Shown here piece by piece: positions 19,899-29,598 of a DNA stretch of 33,769 nt. Numbering within the stretch: position 1 is the first letter of the stretch; each line of letters begins with the position of its first letter. The stretch is from the NCBI GenBank assembly GCA_003697105.1, contig RFFQ01000193.1:1-33769 (forward strand). The letters are read 5' to 3'. The position numbers and the translations under genes were made by a program. The DNA is from Gemmatimonadota bacterium (GTDB lineage Bacteria > 4572-55 > J002). The notes under the pieces were generated by a model that saw only the letters and a program-made list of their open reading frames with translations, had not been told where the DNA came from and did not search any database.

Positions 19899-20894
19899 TT
19901 ACATCATACCTAAATTCCGCAAATCCTCGCGGGGTTCATCAAAACTGCAACTCCCGTAGGAAATAAAATTTTCCCGCCGGAGTTGGATAATATCATCGAG
20001 TTCAATTAGCAGGTCATTCCACTCAAACACGGCGTTTGTAAACGTGAAATGTTCGGGGTGTTCATCCCGAAGGATGTCCATGATCTTTGTTTGGCTCAAG
20101 TTATGGACTGCCCCCAACAGGCCGGCACCAAACACATTCAAAAAGCCGTGCATCATGGTTTGCACTCCCGGGTTGAAGTGGCGTACCGGATGGTGCAATC
20201 CGGCGGTGAATTTCATGGGGATATTATGTTGCAAGCAAGCATAAATGGCATGAGCTACCCACTCCACCGGGGGAAACATGGCGGCATTTACCCCACCGCA
20301 CCGCAGTTTGAATCCGGCGCGATAGACCTCTAAGTGCTTGCCGGGTTTGACCACCCGGGTGTGCTGGGTGGCTAATCCGCTGACGGTCGCCTCAATAACG
20401 GCTTGCCAATCCTCCCCTAAAATTGGCTCGTAGAAGGGTGTCATCGGATGTTCCTCTTCCAATTTATCGGCGACGTGTGTCAACATATCGTGAAGGGCGG
20501 CGGCGTTATGGGCGGCGGTCAGTTGTTGGGGTAACTTCACTTCCAGTACATCGGCAACGACATGTGGCTGGTGACGGTCTTCAAACTCTTGGATGGCTTG
20601 TAGATCGGCATCCAGACCGTCCATAAATTGCTCGGCGGTTTCCCCGCCCTGTCCTAAAATGGAAAAATGAAGTGTTTTTGGTGCGTTGCTCAGTTGGTCT
20701 CCGGCGACTTCGCTCAGTTCGACCAAACGGGTTGCCGGGCAGATAAAGCGAGAGATCATCCACTGATCTGCCCCCTGAATGTAGCGCAAATAGTTGCGGA
20801 TTGCTGGTTCCATATCCAGCTTTGCCGGCGGGAACAGCCCCGCATAGTCAATCAGCTTATGCATAAAAGCGGTAAAACTTTTGGTATGGGTCAT
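19899..20894 (-). CDS. Conserved hypothetical protein adjacent to fahA
   Basis: Motif blocks [45 protein letters not shown] 20894 with GAGGAG SD. Confidence 0.8.
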
Positions 20895-20930
20895 AGTTGG
20901 CTCCTCACTCATTCCGAAAATTTTAGAAGG

Positions 20931-22031: not shown

Positions 22032-22061
22032 TTGACTTTTCACTGGGTTTTTCCCTATACT
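22032..22061 (+). promoter_or_regulatory. Putative sigma70 promoter of the GTPase operon
   Basis: TTGACT (22032-22037), 18-nt spacer, TATACT (22056-22061), about 50 nt before ATG 22110. Confidence 0.6.
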
Positions 22062-22109: not shown

Positions 22110-23096
22110 ATGATTTGCCCATTTTGTCTTGATGCTGTTACATTTGCTCGTGATAAATCCCGACGAGGGTACGCAATGGCATATCGTTGCCCCAGTTGTG
22201 GGGAGCGGGCGCCGGCGCTTTATGTGCGGGAATACAAAGCGTTTCCGCCGGTAGTACTCAACGCCGTCGGTTTCCGGCAGCATGGCAAAACGGTCTATTT
22301 TGCGGCACTTTTCTACGCCTTGAAAAAACTCCGTCTGGCGAGTCATTGGGACGATTTTTTCACGATGAGCCTGGATGAGGACAGTCTCAACACCGTTTAT
22401 GAAAATATGCGGTTGCTCGAAGCGGGTCGCTTGCCGAATGCGACCCCGCGCAATTTCCCGCGACCCACGATGTTACGGGTGTATGGTGTACCCTTTCAAC
22501 CGAGTTATACCTTGCTTTGCTATGATACCGGTGGCGAATGCTTTGAAAAACCGAACCAATTGGTACAATTTGCTGGCTTTGTCCGGCGGGCAAAAGCGGT
22601 ACTCTTTTTGATGAGTTTAGGGGATATGAAGGATGCCAATGCCGAAGCATATCGCTTGCTCAACACCTACCTCATCGGAATGGGTGAACTGGGTGGTAAT
22701 ACCCACAACCAACATCTGATCGTGGTCTGCACGAAAGCAGATCAGCTTGTGGATAAATTACCGGAGGACGTCGTTGATTATCTGATTCATGGGACGGTAA
22801 AAGGATTGATCCAGCATGATAATTACATGACGACCCTGTACCAGATGTCAACGAGATTGCGCACGTATATCCAAAATACGGTGGGAGCGTATGAATTTTT
22901 GAATGCCGCTGATGCACATTTTAAATCTGTCAATTTCTCCGTGATTTCTGCTTTGGGTGCCGCCCCAGAAGGTTCGCGGCTACCCGTCGAGATCGTCCCG
23001 CGTCGGGTTTTTGACCCCCTTTTTTGGGCGATGGAAAAATCACGGATGACATGGAAAGACCGTCTTTACGGTCTGTTTCGAGGAAGGAAAACGTGA
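22110..23096 (+). CDS. Zn-ribbon-fused TRAFAC-class P-loop GTPase (DO-GTPase2-like)
   Basis: N-terminal CPFC...CPSC; G1 GFRQHGKT, G2 Thr in NATP, G3 DTGGE, G4 TKAD, G5 SALG. Confidence 0.85.
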   Translation: MICPFCLDAVTFARDKSRRGYAMAYRCPSCGERAPALYVREYKAFPPVVLNAVGFRQHGKTVYFAALFYALKKLRLASHWDDFFTMSLDEDSLNTVYENMRLLEAGRLPNATPRNFPRPTMLRVYGVPFQPSYTLLCYDTGGECFEKPNQLVQFAGFVRRAKAVLFLMSLGDMKDANAEAYRLLNTYLIGMGELGGNTHNQHLIVVCTKADQLVDKLPEDVVDYLIHGTVKGLIQHDNYMTTLYQMSTRLRTYIQNTVGAYEFLNAADAHFKSVNFSVISALGAAPEGSRLPVEIVPRRVFDPLFWAMEKSRMTWKDRLYGLFRGRKT

Positions 23097-23719
23097 TGAT
23101 CCTCCGTTGTGATAAAACTGGTTTTCCACTCGTCTCGTTGCGGAGCGGAATTGATATGCAACTGTTACCGGTGACGAAAGCTCAGTTTGACGCCTTTTTA
23201 GTAGAATCGCCTGATTTCCCACCCGAAGCCTATGCACAAATGATGGCGCTCAATCCTCCTCTCGAACTAGGTCAGCTTACCGCTGAAAATCGGGAACAGA
23301 TATTTTTAACCGGAATTCTGCCAGAAGAGGCGCTCCAATTTGCCCAATGGCTCGGTGAGGGTTACGATTTTCCTACTGTCGAAGAATGGCGGGGAATGTA
23401 CGATGACCTGTTGCTAGAGGTGGGATCATTCGATTACCTTCAACAGTTACCCGAACAGTGTGAATCGGCAATGGCACGAGACATTCTTCGGCGGCTAATC
23501 AATCAGATTCAACCCTATTCGCTAATGGACATCTCGTTGTTGAGACAAGGTGTGGTAGAATGGGTGCACACTTCGAAGCATCCGGGCGATTTTGCCGGAT
23601 TGGGTACACCGCGCCCTCAATTCCAACCCAATTTATACGATCCCCTTAATGATGTCGTACGCCCGCTTTCGCGCGAAAATCGCATTAAATATTTTGGTTT
23701 TCGTCTTATCCACCGTTGA
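23096..23719 (+). CDS. Divergent FGE/SUMF1 (FGE-sulfatase)-fold protein
   Basis: PVTKAQFDAF, EEALQFAQWL..YDFPTVEEW, GVVEWV and terminal GFRL mirror the FGE-sulfatase blocks; TGATG overlap with the GTPase stop. Confidence 0.7.
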   Translation: MILRCDKTGFPLVSLRSGIDMQLLPVTKAQFDAFLVESPDFPPEAYAQMMALNPPLELGQLTAENREQIFLTGILPEEALQFAQWLGEGYDFPTVEEWRGMYDDLLLEVGSFDYLQQLPEQCESAMARDILRRLINQIQPYSLMDISLLRQGVVEWVHTSKHPGDFAGLGTPRPQFQPNLYDPLNDVVRPLSRENRIKYFGFRLIHR

Positions 23720-23737: not shown

Positions 23738-25072
23738 ATGGCTCTGGAAGGCATCCTCGCCCAATTGCAACACCCGGCTTGGCATATTCGCCAGCAAGCA
23801 TTGCAAACGGTTTGCGGGGACCCCCAACCAGACTGGATTCCCCGCCTCCTGCCGCATCTCAACCACCCAGACTGGAAAATCCGCGATTGTTTGCATACCG
23901 CTTTGACCCAGCTGTGCCGCCAGCTTGAGCCGCCGGATCACGCGGTGATTGTCGGGCAGTTATTGCCCTATTTGAGTGACCCACATCTGACCGTCCAACG
24001 GGCGGTCTGTGAAGCCCTTGCTTATCTGCCTGACCCCCGTACCATTGCCCCCATCCGCCGCTACCTGACCCATCCCGACCCGTATCTGCGGCGAACCGCT
24101 TGTGACGTTCTCGGCCAGTGGGGTGACCCCCTATTCATTCCAGATTTTGCCGCTTGCCTATCTGATGAAGACGAAGCGGTACGCTATTTGGCAGTGCTTC
24201 AATTGGTACAATTTGACCTGCCGGATGCCTTACAGGCGCTTCTTCGCGCTGTGGATGACCCTTTCCCGCGTACGCGAGAGATGGTTGCCGCATATCTAGG
24301 CAACGTGGGCGGCGATGCTGCCATACACGCGTTGATCCACATGGTAGAAGATATAGACCGGCTCGTGCGCCGTCAGGCTGTGGCGGCACTCGGTCAGGTG
24401 GCTGATTTGCGGGCAACAAACCCGCTTTTAGAACGATTGAATGATAATGATCTCGCCGTCCAGCGCGCCGCCGCCGAAGCTTTGATCCAACTGGGGAGTG
24501 TATCTGTACTGGAACAGATGCTACGGCGCTATCATTATGATGAGATCGAACGGGTGATTCAAGGTCTCCGGCACATGAGCAACCGCCTGAAGCCGCATTA
24601 TCCGAATTTAATTTGCCTTGATTGTCTGACTCGCTTCCGCTGGCGGGGACTCTACAGTGGATTCCATTATTACGGGCGTTTTTTGTGTTGCCGTACGTGT
24701 GGGCGATTGAATACGGCGCGCACTCAAATAACGGAAGTCGTCGCCGTGTTTGACCTTTCTCGCTCAGACCCACGCTGGCAGGATGACGATCGGTTGTACA
24801 TCAATGTCCAGATCGATCCCCAGTTGTACGATTTTGATCGCGTCGAGATTCTCAACACCACCGACGAGGCCGTTGAGGCATTTTGTATCCGGGTAAAGAA
24901 TGACGAGGACGAATTTAGACGACCTAACTATCGCAAAATTCCGGTTTTCGTGCATTGCCCCTTAACCGAAAATACAATGATATGCCGCTTACAATCTTCC
25001 GCTGGTATAACCGGCGATACGATTCGCATCCTGAAACATACCTTCGGTACCGTGGAAGTGATCGAACCATGA
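23738..25072 (+). CDS. HEAT-repeat protein with C-terminal Zn-ribbon domain (paralog 1)
   Basis: About 8 PBS-lyase-type HEAT repeats (L.D.D..VR..A..AL), then CLDC...CRTC and a conserved tail; GAGGAG SD. Confidence 0.85.
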   Translation: MALEGILAQLQHPAWHIRQQALQTVCGDPQPDWIPRLLPHLNHPDWKIRDCLHTALTQLCRQLEPPDHAVIVGQLLPYLSDPHLTVQRAVCEALAYLPDPRTIAPIRRYLTHPDPYLRRTACDVLGQWGDPLFIPDFAACLSDEDEAVRYLAVLQLVQFDLPDALQALLRAVDDPFPRTREMVAAYLGNVGGDAAIHALIHMVEDIDRLVRRQAVAALGQVADLRATNPLLERLNDNDLAVQRAAAEALIQLGSVSVLEQMLRRYHYDEIERVIQGLRHMSNRLKPHYPNLICLDCLTRFRWRGLYSGFHYYGRFLCCRTCGRLNTARTQITEVVAVFDLSRSDPRWQDDDRLYINVQIDPQLYDFDRVEILNTTDEAVEAFCIRVKNDEDEFRRPNYRKIPVFVHCPLTENTMICRLQSSAGITGDTIRILKHTFGTVEVIEP

Positions 25073-26295
25073 GCTTGTTTTGGACCTTGTTACGCCTCAA
25101 GAGTCTCTTCCAGCGAACCCGGGCAAAGGCGTGCCGCCAACTAGCACAATTAAAGATTTCACCGGAAAAAATCCGCAAAAAGGTTATCCCCAAACTGGCG
25201 GATATTCTGGTTTATGAGGGTCGAAACGAGGTCATACGTGCCGCAGAGGATACCTTGAAACATTTTAAACAGGCAGGCTATGAACAAGAGGTTTTGGAAG
25301 AACTCCTGAACAACCTCAATCCATATTCCCCAGCACTCAATGAAGAACGGTTGGAACGGATTGAACACGTCGCGGAAACCCCAATCCAAGACTTGCTGGT
25401 ACGCTTTGTGGAACATGGTTCTTCCCCGAAATTACGCAGTAAAGTTGGATTGGTGGCGGCATGGCGCTCACAAAACTTTGCGATCCTCAAACCCATTTTG
25501 ACTGAATTGGCGGATTGGAACCCCTATTGGGATGCGTTCCAGCACTTGCTATGGAATGCCCTAAACGACGACGATACCCGGGAACCGGTGATTGACTTCT
25601 TGATCGAGGTCGTACAAAAAGAATCCTCTTACCGGTTGCGCTCTTTGGGGTACTATCTGTTGGGTCAATCCAGAGCTCGCCGGGTGATCCCCGTCCTGCT
25701 AGACCGCTTGAAAACAGAGCGCGATGACGCCACCATGTATGCGCTGGTCAAGGCATTTGAGGCGTTAGGAGACCCGCGGGTTATTCGCCCGCTCATCGAT
25801 TTTGGAAAGCGTGAGTATCTGATGGTGAGCCATGTCAATAAAGTGGCTCATAATCTGAGCCGGAAAATCCATCCGCACCGCAAAACGTTGCTTTGCCGGA
25901 ACTGTCTCACCCGCTACACGGAAGATTTTTCTGCCCTTGGTGGTTTACCGGTATTGCTTTGCCGGAATTGTGGGGATTCGATGGCGTTGCTCATCGGGGT
26001 GGAAACGGTTGTCGCGGTGTTGGATGTGGATGCTACGCTGGAAATCCCCCCGGACGACGTGCCGGCGGTATTACGTATCAATTATGTGAAGGAAGACCGG
26101 CTATTTGACTTTGATTGCATCCAAATTATCAACGCACCCGATATGGTGGTAGAGCGATTTTGCATCCGAGCCGGTAATGATGAGGATCGCTTCCGGCGCA
26201 AACGCTACAAAAAAATTCCATGTGAGGTGCGATGTCACCTCCTGCCGGGCACCATCAACATGCTAGAACGTATGTTTGGAGAGGTAACAACATGA
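25069..26295 (+). CDS. HEAT-repeat protein with C-terminal Zn-ribbon domain (paralog 2)
   Basis: Degenerate helical/HEAT repeats (ALGDPRVIRPLI), then CRNC...CRNC and the same tail as paralog 1; ATGA overlap at 25069-25072. Confidence 0.82.
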   Translation: MSLFWTLLRLKSLFQRTRAKACRQLAQLKISPEKIRKKVIPKLADILVYEGRNEVIRAAEDTLKHFKQAGYEQEVLEELLNNLNPYSPALNEERLERIEHVAETPIQDLLVRFVEHGSSPKLRSKVGLVAAWRSQNFAILKPILTELADWNPYWDAFQHLLWNALNDDDTREPVIDFLIEVVQKESSYRLRSLGYYLLGQSRARRVIPVLLDRLKTERDDATMYALVKAFEALGDPRVIRPLIDFGKREYLMVSHVNKVAHNLSRKIHPHRKTLLCRNCLTRYTEDFSALGGLPVLLCRNCGDSMALLIGVETVVAVLDVDATLEIPPDDVPAVLRINYVKEDRLFDFDCIQIINAPDMVVERFCIRAGNDEDRFRRKRYKKIPCEVRCHLLPGTINMLERMFGEVTT

Positions 26296-27923
26296 TCCTA
26301 AATGCCGCTCAATTGATTTATGCCAACGTCGAAGCGGAACAATCGCCGCAAAAACAAGGGGGATTTCAGACCCTATTTTATACCCACAGCCAGATCGACC
26401 CCGCCGAACGGGAAGAGATTGAGACGCGAATGCTTTACGTTCCATCGGAGGTGGAACCGGTGAAGTCCATCTTTTTCTGTACGGCGAGTGGAAAGGTGGT
26501 GATCGCCCGGATCGTCTCCCTGCCCGATCCCGATAGTGCCGGACGAAGTGGACGGTATTTAGGGCATTGTCTGGTTCTCCGGGCGGAGGATGCCACCCAA
26601 ATTGGGATAAATCCGTTTGATCTCTTCCGGTCTGCCCGGTTCTTCCACACTGTTGAAGCGGCATTGAACGCTGGCAATTTTGAAACCGGTAACATCCCGC
26701 CGCTTCCCCTGACGGTCAATCTAACAGAAAGTGACTTCACTCTGGCAAAACAGTGGTCACCGGCGGAACTCAAACGGCTCGTGTTGCTCTTTACCAGTGT
26801 GGAGCGGCAACTCGCCGACCGGCGCACCGTTGCCTTTATTGGAGACCCCGAAGCCGTTCTGCAAACGATTGAAGCCGGTTGGTTTGTCCTACCGGCGCAA
26901 TTACGCCGAAAATGCACGTTTGATACGTATTTTTACCGCTGTAATATTGTGGCAACGCCTTATTGGGGGATTGGGCTGTTGCACGCCACCGATAACCCGC
27001 GTTACAGCCTAGTGGATGTGGCGGCAAAGCAAGTGCGCCATTCTGTCATAGACCTGCCCCAAACTGCCTACGAATGTTGGGTGCTGTCATTGCTAGATCA
27101 ACAGCGGTGGTCTCGCATCGACCGGCACAAAGAGCAGGCATTTCGCCTCGGCAATTTCATCGATCAAGAGGAAGTCGCGCCGGAAATGTTAGACCACCTC
27201 CCAGATGAAATCATCCATGAAGTATTTCAGTTTAATGCGGATCGGGTGCGGCAGCGATTGTTGGCAAAAATACAGGAGAACTTTCCGGCGGAATTGGCTG
27301 GGCGGGTTGTCGAACCGATCCATCAGCAAAAGGATGCGACGCAATTATTGCACTTTTTGCGCAAGGGATTTGAGATTTCCTTTTTACTCGATATGCTGGA
27401 CCGGGTCTATTATGCCCAAAAGGACTCAGCGCCGGAAAAAGCGGAGAAAAACGCCCTAGCACGCCTCTTAAAAACGGAATCGCATGTTCGGTTGAATGCG
27501 CTTTTATTCGCTTGGAATGGCAAGGCGAATGCGTTGGCGAAGGTGCTCAGTGAGATGCCCACCAAGACCTATCAAGCTGTTGTTACTCGGGCAGTCGCCC
27601 ATCAGTGGGTTGAACGGGCGTCGCTGTTGTACGTGCGCGGGCGAGGTGAATATTTGTTACGAGCCTATCTGGCAGTCCTACCGGCAGAATACCCGGATGT
27701 CGTTGATGTCGTCAAAACATTGGTTCGGGCGAAGGACACCGCGTGCTTGACTCTATTGATCCCGCATCTGGAGCAGTTCGACCGCAAGACACAGGAAACG
27801 CTCACCAAATGGGAAGATGACCTCCCGCCGGATGTGCGGCAAGCACTGGCGGCAATCCTGCCCCCGAAAAAAACGGGTGTGTTGGCGAAGCTCCGCAACA
27901 TCCTCTCTGGATACCGCCCCTAA
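26292..27923 (+). CDS. GAP1-N2-like (GTPase-associated protein 1) domain protein with helical C-terminal region
   Basis: N-terminal QLIYAN...GGFQT and DSAGRSGRYLGHCL resemble the GAP1-N2 pattern; middle WFVLPAQLR..CTFDTY; ATGA overlap at 26292-26295. Confidence 0.72.
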   Translation: MILNAAQLIYANVEAEQSPQKQGGFQTLFYTHSQIDPAEREEIETRMLYVPSEVEPVKSIFFCTASGKVVIARIVSLPDPDSAGRSGRYLGHCLVLRAEDATQIGINPFDLFRSARFFHTVEAALNAGNFETGNIPPLPLTVNLTESDFTLAKQWSPAELKRLVLLFTSVERQLADRRTVAFIGDPEAVLQTIEAGWFVLPAQLRRKCTFDTYFYRCNIVATPYWGIGLLHATDNPRYSLVDVAAKQVRHSVIDLPQTAYECWVLSLLDQQRWSRIDRHKEQAFRLGNFIDQEEVAPEMLDHLPDEIIHEVFQFNADRVRQRLLAKIQENFPAELAGRVVEPIHQQKDATQLLHFLRKGFEISFLLDMLDRVYYAQKDSAPEKAEKNALARLLKTESHVRLNALLFAWNGKANALAKVLSEMPTKTYQAVVTRAVAHQWVERASLLYVRGRGEYLLRAYLAVLPAEYPDVVDVVKTLVRAKDTACLTLLIPHLEQFDRKTQETLTKWEDDLPPDVRQALAAILPPKKTGVLAKLRNILSGYRP

Positions 27924-28067: not shown

Positions 28068-28571
28068 TTATTTGGAATTGATTTTAATTTTGTGGACGTT
28101 TTTCTTGGCTTCCGGGGTTTTGGGCAATTTGACTGTTAAGACCCCGTTTTTGAATTTCGCGTCCGCTTTATTCACGTCAATCTTGGTTGGTAGCGGAATA
28201 TCGCGCCGGAACGAGCCGTAGGAGCGTTCCATGCGGAAGTAGTTGTCACCTTTGTCTTCAAACTCCTGCTTTTTCTCGCCTTTAATGGTCAGGGTATCGT
28301 CGGAAAGTGACAGATCAATGTTGCTTTCATCCATGCCCGGCAATTCTGCCGATACGACGTATTCATTGTCATTTTCCGTAATGTCCACCGATGGGCTGAA
28401 ACCGCTCCAACCGCCTAAACGGCTTTCGTAAGGGGTAAGCCCGAACTCGTTAAACATCTCATCAAACATGCGATTCATTTCCCGCTGGAGCCGGAAAAAC
28501 GGACTTTCATCTTCCCAACGCGCGGGAGTTCGCTTCTGACCAAAGGTTGGAATTAAATCTCGAATAGCCAT
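28068..28571 (-). CDS. Small heat shock protein (Hsp20/alpha-crystallin)
   Basis: PSVDITE, AELPGM, ERSYGSFRR, AKFKNGVLTV.LPK. Confidence 0.95.
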   Translation of the reverse strand: MAIRDLIPTFGQKRTPARWEDESPFFRLQREMNRMFDEMFNEFGLTPYESRLGGWSGFSPSVDITENDNEYVVSAELPGMDESNIDLSLSDDTLTIKGEKKQEFEDKGDNYFRMERSYGSFRRDIPLPTKIDVNKADAKFKNGVLTVKLPKTPEAKKNVHKIKINSK

Positions 28572-28721
28572 GAATCATCCCTCCTTTACGATGGATTGTG
28601 ATGAATGGTTCACCGAATCACAGATGATACTACGGATACACTAGAACACTATGGTCATTTCCGGTAAGACCCTTCGGATGTGGCTTAGTACCCATCTGAA
28701 GGGTCTGAAATTTCAGGGGTG

Positions 28722-29120
28722 TTATGCCACTTTCACACTAATCTTCTTCGCGATTGCCGGAGCCGCTTTCGGCATGGTTAAATGTAGCACCCCGTTTTTC
28801 AGCGTCGCTTCAATCTTTTCGCGATCCACGTCATCGGTCAAGGTGAAAGAGCGTTCATAATCACCGATTTCATATTCAGCGTATGCCAGCTCGTATCCTT
28901 CATGGGCGACCGGTTTAACCGTGCCATGAATCGTCAAGACATTTTTCTCCAAGGTAATGTCAATCGCGTCTTCGCTGACTCCCGGCATATCCGCCATCAC
29001 CACGTAGGTGTCATTTTTTTCTAGGATGTCAACAGCCGGAATAAATACTTTGCGCTGCATTTCATGGTTGCGTTCCATTTCGGGAGTTGCTTGATCGGTG
29101 GTTTTGACTTCCGTTGTCAT
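28722..29120 (-). CDS. Small heat shock protein (Hsp20)
   Basis: PAVDILE, ADMPGV, YERSFTL, LKNGVLHL; start at ATG 29120 after AAAGGAGG. Confidence 0.94.
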   Translation of the reverse strand: MTTEVKTTDQATPEMERNHEMQRKVFIPAVDILEKNDTYVVMADMPGVSEDAIDITLEKNVLTIHGTVKPVAHEGYELAYAEYEIGDYERSFTLTDDVDREKIEATLKNGVLHLTMPKAAPAIAKKISVKVA

Positions 29121-29160
29121 GGGTATCACCCTCCTTTATGCGGTTTTCGGTTTCAGGGAA

Positions 29161-29598
29161 TTAGGCAGATTTAATTTCGATTTTACGCGGTTTGTCGGCT
29201 TCCGCTCGGGGTAATGTGATGGTCAATACCCCATTTTTGAAGTGGGCTTCGACACCGTCAGAATCGATTTGATACGGCATCCGAACCAAACGGCTGAATT
29301 TACCGGTTTCGCGCTCACGACGATGGTATCGTTCATTTTCGTTTAGTTCAACCGGTTTGCGTTCCCCGGAGATTTTCAAAACGCCATCTTCCACGCTGAT
29401 GTCAATATCTGCCGGCTCAAAACCGGGTAGTTCACAAGTGACAATGACACTGTTTTCGTTGCTCCACACATTCACTGCCGGATAGCGATACCGCCGGTGA
29501 GAGACACTTCCCTCTCCAAAAATGCGGTTGAGATCACGTTGCAACCGGGAAACTTCCCGTAAGGTTTGCTGCAAGGGATTCAATTCATGAAGTAACAT
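29161..29598 (-). CDS. Small heat shock protein (Hsp20)
   Basis: YPAVNV, ELPG, HRRERETGKFSR, FKNGVLTITLPR. Confidence 0.95.
   Translation of the reverse strand: MLLHELNPLQQTLREVSRLQRDLNRIFGEGSVSHRRYRYPAVNVWSNENSVIVTCELPGFEPADIDISVEDGVLKISGERKPVELNENERYHRRERETGKFSRLVRMPYQIDSDGVEAHFKNGVLTITLPRAEADKPRKIEIKSA

Follow-up and report, generated by a model that had tools for sequence, protein, structure and literature searches.

Two adjacent genes in a 33,769-nucleotide stretch of a Gemmatimonadota bacterium (GenBank assembly GCA_003697105.1, contig RFFQ01000193.1; this whole stretch is hereafter the window) encode HEAT-repeat proteins that end in a common C-terminal tail. The tail defines a large unnamed protein family that lacks a Pfam model. 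Each tail consists of a predicted C4 zinc ribbon followed by an alpha/beta domain of ~100 amino acids (aa), and both are encoded in an operon that also carries a zinc-ribbon GTPase (ZnR-DO-GTPase2), an FGE/FGS-like protein and a GAP1 protein. We propose, with a probability of roughly 45%, that the tail has no catalytic role and serves as a coupling handle, connecting variable proteins to a predicted GTPase switch.

Tail protein 1 (positions 23738-25072, plus strand, 444 aa) is composed of an N-terminal HEAT solenoid (23738..24583, residues 1-282) and its tail, while tail protein 2 (25069-26295, plus strand) is 408 aa long when read from ATG 25069. In tail 1, a linker helix and C4 zinc ribbon occupy positions 24584..24721, with cysteine codons at 24614, 24623, 24689 and 24698, and the alpha/beta domain follows at 24722..25069 with the motifs VVAVFD, YIN, YDFDRVEI, VEAF and NDEDEFRR, as well as a 13-15-aa insertion close to its end. 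The corresponding parts of tail 2 lie at 25852..25992 (cysteine codons 25894, 25903, 25960 and 25969) and at 25993..26292 (VVAVLD, RIN, FDFDCIQI, VERF and NDEDRFRR), also on the plus strand. AlphaFold2 models both tails with confidence, as the first-pass annotation of this DNA had suggested trying, and places their elements in the same order: a helix, a hairpin ribbon and then the ~100-aa alpha/beta domain. The predicted local distance difference test (pLDDT) score is 89.7 for tail 1 and 93.1 for tail 2, with predicted template-modelling (pTM) scores of 0.83 and 0.86, respectively. In both models, a beta-hairpin separates the two CxxC knuckles (residues 21-37 in tail 2), and the cysteine pattern together with this hairpin identifies the ribbon as a C4 zinc ribbon that is predicted to bind zinc. 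Strands and helices alternate over residues 54-163 of tail 1, and the alpha/beta domain is predicted to fold as a three-layer alpha/beta sandwich. The first-pass annotation had treated the whole tail as a single zinc-ribbon domain of ~140 aa. The ribbon is indeed present and spans ~30 aa; the rest is a separate ~100-aa domain that is also found without a ribbon.

The four ribbon cysteines are invariant in an alignment of four tails and 90-97% conserved among 235 distinct domain sequences, the set from which all conservation figures are drawn. Within the alpha/beta domain, conservation is concentrated in a series of short motifs: the aspartate of VLD (93%), the asparagine of RVN (95%), the four positions of F-D-F-D (95/97/94/83%), the glutamate and isoleucine of VEI (80% and 95%), the alanine and aspartate of A-x-D (93% each), the glutamate and phenylalanine of VERF (88% and 94%), and N-D-x-D (91/97/94%). 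One arginine and one tyrosine are each 94% conserved, and a fifth cysteine is 91% conserved.

The two tails of the window are 42% identical and contain each of the sequence blocks on which the shared tail had originally been recognized. Their Smith-Waterman score is 222, compared with 29.5 +/- 4.7 (maximum 51) in 500 shuffles, and in whole-protein BLASTP the alignment of the two covers 260 aa with 33% identity (E 2e-25). The N-terminal parts do differ, as had been noted: their Smith-Waterman score of 44 is not significant against shuffles at 33 +/- 5, and the Pfam HEAT_2 model scores 147 bits in one and 38 bits in the other. The tails align over 142 codons. The encoded residue is shared at 59 of these positions, but the codon itself at only 26 of the 59; nucleotide identity of the tails is 50.7%, falling to 39.4% at third positions. 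Few shared codons and low third-position identity indicate that the copies are old and have been maintained at the protein level, in line with the earlier suggestion of an old duplication kept under selection.

The tail falls outside any well-characterized family in Pfam, NCBIfam, PADLOC and the sequences of solved structures, so its description as unrecognized stands. Neither window tail matches a model in Pfam, NCBIfam or PADLOC, and among 76 isolated tails scanned with Pfam no family covers the tail, nor is there an EAD or GAAD match. Two candidate assignments were set aside. Pfam DUF7836 (PF25206) weakly matches the ribbon region of 5 of the 76 tails (best E 6.7e-4) and never rises above its cut-off in 4 genomes; with a threshold of E<=1, the model also finds matches in 12 of 14 control genomes, which points to generic ribbon similarity. 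The PADLOC family HEAT_CxxC_PD-DEXK (PDLC01150), which resembles the tail proteins in having HEAT repeats followed by a CxxC element, matches tail protein 1 at E 2.9e-4 over profile positions 12-86 only, within the HEAT part, and is not among the five families that the 76 isolated tails match at E<=0.01. Searching solved structures by sequence, the whole proteins matched through their HEAT part alone, and the isolated tails returned only three generic zinc-finger entries (E 0.37-2.5). In the ESM Atlas, structural matches reach a TM-score of at most 0.39 and the feature search gave no usable match.

A word-indexed homologue search with the tail region recovers only the protein itself, and an exhaustive profile search is needed to reveal the family. 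The profile search envisaged at first pass, run with a profile of four tails against 1.84 billion cluster representatives, uncovers a large family with varied N-termini and neighbours: the number of representatives falls from 1,088 at E<=1e-3 to 909 at E<=1e-10 and to 182 at E<=1e-30. Profile matches to window tails 1 and 2 have E values of 4.5e-47 and 7.6e-47, respectively. Among the best 150 of the 1,088 representatives, the tail reaches to within 25 aa of the C-terminus in 140, a transmembrane-like segment lies N-terminal of the tail in 82 by a crude hydropathy test, and three hold two full copies of the tail. The tail is thus a constant domain on variable scaffolds, as had been proposed, the N-termini being HEAT, helical or membrane regions. 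Pfam recognizes nothing but HEAT-type repeats next to the tail, in 26 of 78 representatives scanned at E<=1e-3 and in 9 of 70 scanned at E<=1e-8, and no enzyme, GTPase or GAP1 domain is fused to the tail in these 148. A further two-tail protein is encoded on another contig of the source genome (C185, locus L005:8807-10396, minus strand). This 529-aa protein carries two full tails split by HEAT-like helices. Its gene is flanked by an rlmN-like and an rsmB-like gene, at a distance from the GTPase operon and with no GTPase gene close by.

In the window, the operon runs on the plus strand in the order ZnR-DO-GTPase2, FGE/FGS-like protein, tail protein 1, tail protein 2 and GAP1. The GTPase gene (22110..23096) encodes 328 aa from ATG 22110. 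The listed open reading frame begins at TTG 22032, and homologues begin at MLCPFCL; a promoter-like site lies at 22032-22061. Pfam identifies the protein as a DO-GTPase (PF19993 DO-GTPase2, 33.3 bits, cut-off 27), and an alignment with 20 homologues brings out the motifs CPFC...CPxC (CPFC...CPSC in the window protein), GFRQHGKT, DTGGE and TKAD. These features place it among TRAFAC GTPases of the DO-GTPase family that have a zinc ribbon at the N-terminus and a glutamate in Walker B. The FGE/FGS-like gene (23096..23719, plus strand, 207 aa) overlaps the GTPase stop by 1 nt, and its product has a weak match to Pfam FGE-sulfatase (PF03781, E 0.012, 15.7 bits, below the cut-off of 23.3); homologues with 37-50% identity occur in 17 related loci. 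Tail protein 1 is preceded by a Shine-Dalgarno-like GAGGAG 6 nt before ATG 23738, and its HEAT assignment is secured by Pfam (HEAT_2 147.3 bits, cut-off 27.7; HEAT 96 bits). The open reading frame of tail protein 2 is also open from 24955, and its likely start is ATG 25069, which forms an ATGA overlap with the TGA of tail protein 1. Its N-terminal helical, degenerate HEAT part (25069..25851, plus strand) is recognized by HEAT_2 at 38.1 bits, above the same cut-off. Hydropathy reveals no transmembrane-like segment in either window tail protein. The GAP1 gene (26292..27923, plus strand, 543 aa; GAP1-N2 plus GAP1-M) overlaps the stop of tail protein 2 through a second ATGA and is the last gene of the coupled operon, downstream of the GTPase. 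It scores 43.3 bits with PF20013 (cut-off 24) and 23.8 bits with PF20014, just below the cut-off of 24, and homologues at 29-41% identity are encoded in related loci. The window genes are translationally coupled through the junctions TGATG, ATGA and ATGA.

By its domain content, the operon is a GAP1-N2 GTPase-centric system, probably of the form that includes an FGS-fold protein, as such systems are set out in the main text of Kaur, Burroughs, Iyer and Aravind (2020, eLife, PMC7159879). That text places GAP1-N2 systems in chloroflexi, planctomycetes and verrucomicrobia and names FNIII, tubulin, HSP70 and kinase themes among them, along with FGS or GYF effectors in planctomycetes. The window operon resembles these systems in its ZnR-DO-GTPase followed by a GAP1 of N2 and M parts, its putative FGE/FGS-fold protein, its variable accessory genes and a patchy distribution in the phyla named. 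It differs in that the 2020 main text names no HEAT or transmembrane protein with a zinc-ribbon and alpha/beta tail. The FNIII domain, which the same text describes as typical of GAP1-N2 systems, is without a match in the five operon proteins at Pfam E<=0.1, though that text has FGS in its place in planctomycete forms, and the supplementary CSV file of the paper contains none of the terms HEAT, GAP1-N2, FGS and ZnR. A literature search for DO-GTPase/GAP1 systems by name returned only the 2020 prediction and one unrelated methods paper; these systems, predicted by comparative genomics, appear experimentally uncharacterized.

Two previously described adaptor domains offer functional analogies for the tail. 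GAAD, described in the main text of the 2020 paper (PMC7159879) as an alpha-helical domain confined to GAP1-N1 systems, where it is attached to enzymatic effectors, is the closest: like the tail, it is a small constant domain on variable modules in DO-GTPase/GAP1 operons, with a predicted coupling role. Unlike GAAD, the tail combines a zinc ribbon with an alpha/beta domain and accompanies GAP1-N2; it is carried on HEAT or membrane modules, which are not enzymes, and is found beyond such systems as well. EADs, according to the same source (PMC7159879), join core and effector by being present on both. The tail resembles them in its many dispersed copies per genome and in the conflict-type genes that lie near some orphan tail genes, whereas it is absent from the core proteins here. 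A homotypic link between tail and core is excluded, because the core proteins do not carry the tail domain. The tail belongs to neither GAAD nor EAD, and its resemblance to them is functional only.

The genomic context of the tail was surveyed by a pattern scan of one genome per species, based on a 41-row alignment, which yielded 65 loci in 31 assemblies; an earlier contig scan with the four-tail profile had given no loci. Most loci belong to Chloroflexota (Anaerolineae, Caldilineaceae) and Armatimonadota, with a few in Thermodesulfobacteriota, Planctomycetota and Verrucomicrobiota. Core genes (GTPase, FGE-like or GAP1) lie beside one to three tail genes in 20 of the 65 loci, across five phyla. 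The usual order in these core loci is GTPase, one to three tail genes, FGE-like and GAP1, and a tail gene is the next gene downstream of the GTPase in 15 of the 18 loci that hold a GTPase gene, the window included. The GTPase homologues are 40-61% identical to the window GTPase. Chloroflexota core loci typically encode a soluble protein of ~300 aa and a polytopic tail protein of ~570 aa, and most core-linked tail proteins have N-termini without Pfam recognition. In a quick tree, the window tails fall in an 11-row group (98 by the Shimodaira-Hasegawa-like approximate likelihood-ratio test, SH-aLRT) that also contains HEAT-bearing Armatimonadota tails together with some orphans and has no internal resolution.

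The association extends to whole genomes. ZnR-tail proteins occur in 29 of the assemblies. The fetched loci of 19 include the core, and a further five have a GAP1 homologue elsewhere at 32-42% identity, bringing the number with a close GAP1 homologue to 24 of 29; one more has a different GAP1-N2. Together with the core genes at 20 of the 65 loci, these counts uphold the link to GTPase/GAP1 loci foreseen by the first-pass annotation. For a background rate, 200 other genomes were sampled evenly from the class around genome G071: a close GAP1 is found in 2 of them, and no tail was found in these 200, with at most 19 candidates per genome scored. Tail matches number 12 in each of two large genomes, several of them being partial pieces of one gene. 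The two cores of this background set are without a tail gene (L079 and L080), one with an FGE-like-GAP1 fusion and the other with two GTPases, which fits tail proteins as accessory plug-ins. In the first of these, from an Anaerolineae-class genome, a single 745-aa chain comprises both the FGE-like protein and GAP1 (L079:9630-11864), suggesting that the two proteins interact. All surveyed genomes are metagenome-assembled, and a missing gene is therefore weak evidence. With that limit, neither GAP1 nor GTPase was found in G070, a 1.7-Mb assembly with only a partial tail match. The source genome itself is phylogenetically isolated: only two of its 60 nearest genomes belong to the same class and the others share only the taxonomic domain with it. 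None of the 60 carries the tail.

The alpha/beta half of the tail also occurs by itself. In seven Chloroflexota assemblies it is fused, without the ribbon, to the C-terminus of the complex-I subunit NuoJ (PF00499), at L043:7645-8472, L056:9500-10324, L062:9473-10312, L063:9494-10318, L064:9734-10261, L070:9458-10297 and L073:9488-10330. Neighbouring nuo genes (NuoI, NuoK, and NuoH or NuoL) are confirmed in six of the seven loci, the neighbours of L073 not having been scanned. The fusions form one clade in the tree, and the GTPase/GAP1 core was not detected in three of the seven genomes.

Several lines of evidence suggest that the tail is a coupling handle: it is C-terminal, it is better conserved than the parts attached to it, it stands in tandem beside the GTPase gene, and its dispersed copies are mostly in genomes that hold the core. 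The tail would act as a self-contained module, in which the C4 zinc ribbon precedes the ~100-aa alpha/beta domain, serving as a constant C-terminal handle on HEAT solenoids, other helical regions, and single-pass or polytopic membrane domains. Through it, these proteins may be plugged into the ZnR-DO-GTPase2/FGE-like/GAP1-N2 switch, in the role of sensors or of GTPase effectors. We infer that the tail would bind a core component, with gene order alone favouring the GTPase, which is encoded just upstream, and that the conserved acidic residues may be kept for structure or for binding a metal or ligand and not for catalysis. A complex prediction for GTPase residues 27-354, GAP1 residues 1-515 and tail 2, the tail being the partner, scored 0.74-0.75; the scores were 0.00 and 0.00 with the partner replaced, and 0.73 with GAP1 replaced, a result that counts neither for nor against binding.

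A number of observations weigh against such a handle. The binding of the tail to the core is itself a prediction drawn from sequence, and 45 of the 65 loci have no nearby core gene, at least 10 of them with at least 5 kb of flank on both sides. Seven of the 45 are the NuoJ-fusion loci. The neighbours in these orphan loci are housekeeping genes and conflict-type genes (AAA_21 + DUF4276, HepT/MNT, HEPN/MNT, TIR-TPR, caspase, EAD7, and Trypco1 + trypsin). At the genome level, GAP1 and GTPase were not found in G061, G062 and G066, where ZnR-tail proteins are present and the GTPase profile is also negative; two genomes that have only the NuoJ fusion (G276 and G277) are without GAP1, GTPase and ZnR-tail proteins. 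The link between tail and core is not exclusive. Further, five acidic residues, an asparagine and an arginine are 83-97% conserved in the 235 domains, a pattern that resembles a metal, ligand or active site more closely than a simple docking surface. Finally, the NuoJ fusions retain VVAVLD, RVNWL, LFDFDxVEI and the DxD of NDxD, with the residue preceding this DxD varying, even where no core is detected, which argues against a surface devoted solely to docking the GTPase.

These residues lead to the alternative that survives best, in which the alpha/beta domain is an independent binder of a metal or small ligand, or an enzyme, and the N-terminal modules and GTPase system target or regulate it, or are regulated by it, NuoJ included. 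The acidic cluster of VLD, FDFD, A-x-D, VERF and NDxD, together with the arginine, would form the site. Polar residues conserved at 80-97% in the 235 domains are consistent with such a site, as is their retention in NuoJ fusions and in genomes without a detected GTPase/GAP1, and the predicted three-layer alpha/beta sandwich belongs to a class rich in nucleotide- and cofactor-binding proteins. We consider this explanation a serious one, if on the doubtful side.

Less probable still, and in our view unlikely, is a homotypic assembly domain, in which the operon tails, the dispersed paralogues and the NuoJ fusion would hetero-oligomerize and the GTPase system would act indirectly. In its favour, 12 of the 20 core loci have at least two tail genes, often two or three in tandem, and the chains with two full tails (3 of the 150 representatives and the 529-aa protein of the source genome), the up to 12 matches per genome and the presence of the domain without any core all point the same way. 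However, the remaining 8 core loci contain just one tail gene each, and in G276 and G277 only the NuoJ copy is present, a second tail protein not having been found. A weak lead, and a very improbable one, is a pseudo-GTPase origin, with the tail descending from the ZnR-DO-GTPase as a degenerate second G domain and pairing with the one active GTPase as the other half of a 'double GTPase'. The tail does not fit the G-domain pattern of a P-loop (GxxxxGK[ST]), a helix alpha-1 after strand 1 and a G-domain fold, and hhalign of the tail with the GTPase aligns the ribbon alone.

Additional genes accompany the core in some loci. A ClpB-like AAA+ protein (AAA_2 + ClpB_D2-small, ~617 aa) occurs in core operons outside Chloroflexota, flanked by one or two proteins without Pfam matches of ~320 and ~370 aa (regions L024:2052-5028, L025:2287-6261, L026:11176-14279, L029:10453-13421, L033:15534-18503 and L045:5783-8390). 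Immediately upstream of the GTPase, two loci encode a radical-SAM protein (Fer4_12 + Radical_SAM, ~203 aa; L024:7347-7952 and L033:7485-8096), and one Caldilineaceae core operon has a 468-aa pentapeptide-repeat protein between its tail and FGE-like genes (L034:10447-11850). In the window, the operon is flanked on the opposite strand by a TrkA-type channel gene upstream and three Hsp20 genes downstream. The latter are tandem Hsp20/alpha-crystallin genes at 28071-29598 (minus strand) encoding 167, 135 and 145 aa, just 3' of the operon. Beside the channel gene lies a 337-aa open reading frame (19902-20912, minus strand) with no Pfam match at E<=1e-5. The operon is contained in two DNA sequencing runs of one study with five single-letter differences in 5.8 kb, giving no sign of operon hypervariability, with the limit that contigs cannot reveal rare variants. 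The runs holding the operon are all labelled hot springs metagenome, and no RNA sequencing runs with the operon are listed.

This analysis adds to what was known of GAP1-N2 systems the anatomy of the tail in two parts, the extent of its family, confident models without a known structural relative, dispersed orphan copies, a genome-level association with a background rate, and the NuoJ fusion. The family merits a Pfam model. A well-folded handle of ~145 aa on more than 1,000 otherwise unrelated partner proteins would be an entry point to the switch: it would tell which proteins belong to it, provide a small soluble piece for binding and structural studies, and supply a short list of residues to mutate. 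The NuoJ fusion inside the nuo operon is an unexpected link of the alpha/beta domain to the respiratory chain. At its broadest, and improbably by our estimate, the alpha/beta domain might be a general plug that wires bacterial membrane proteins, polytopic ones included, and scaffold proteins, even complex I via NuoJ, to a Ras-like GTPase/GAP1 switch, a role comparable, in prokaryotes, to that of the GTPase-binding domains characteristic of eukaryotic small-GTPase effectors. If so, the NuoJ fusions would indicate either control of respiration by the switch or its anchoring on complex I.

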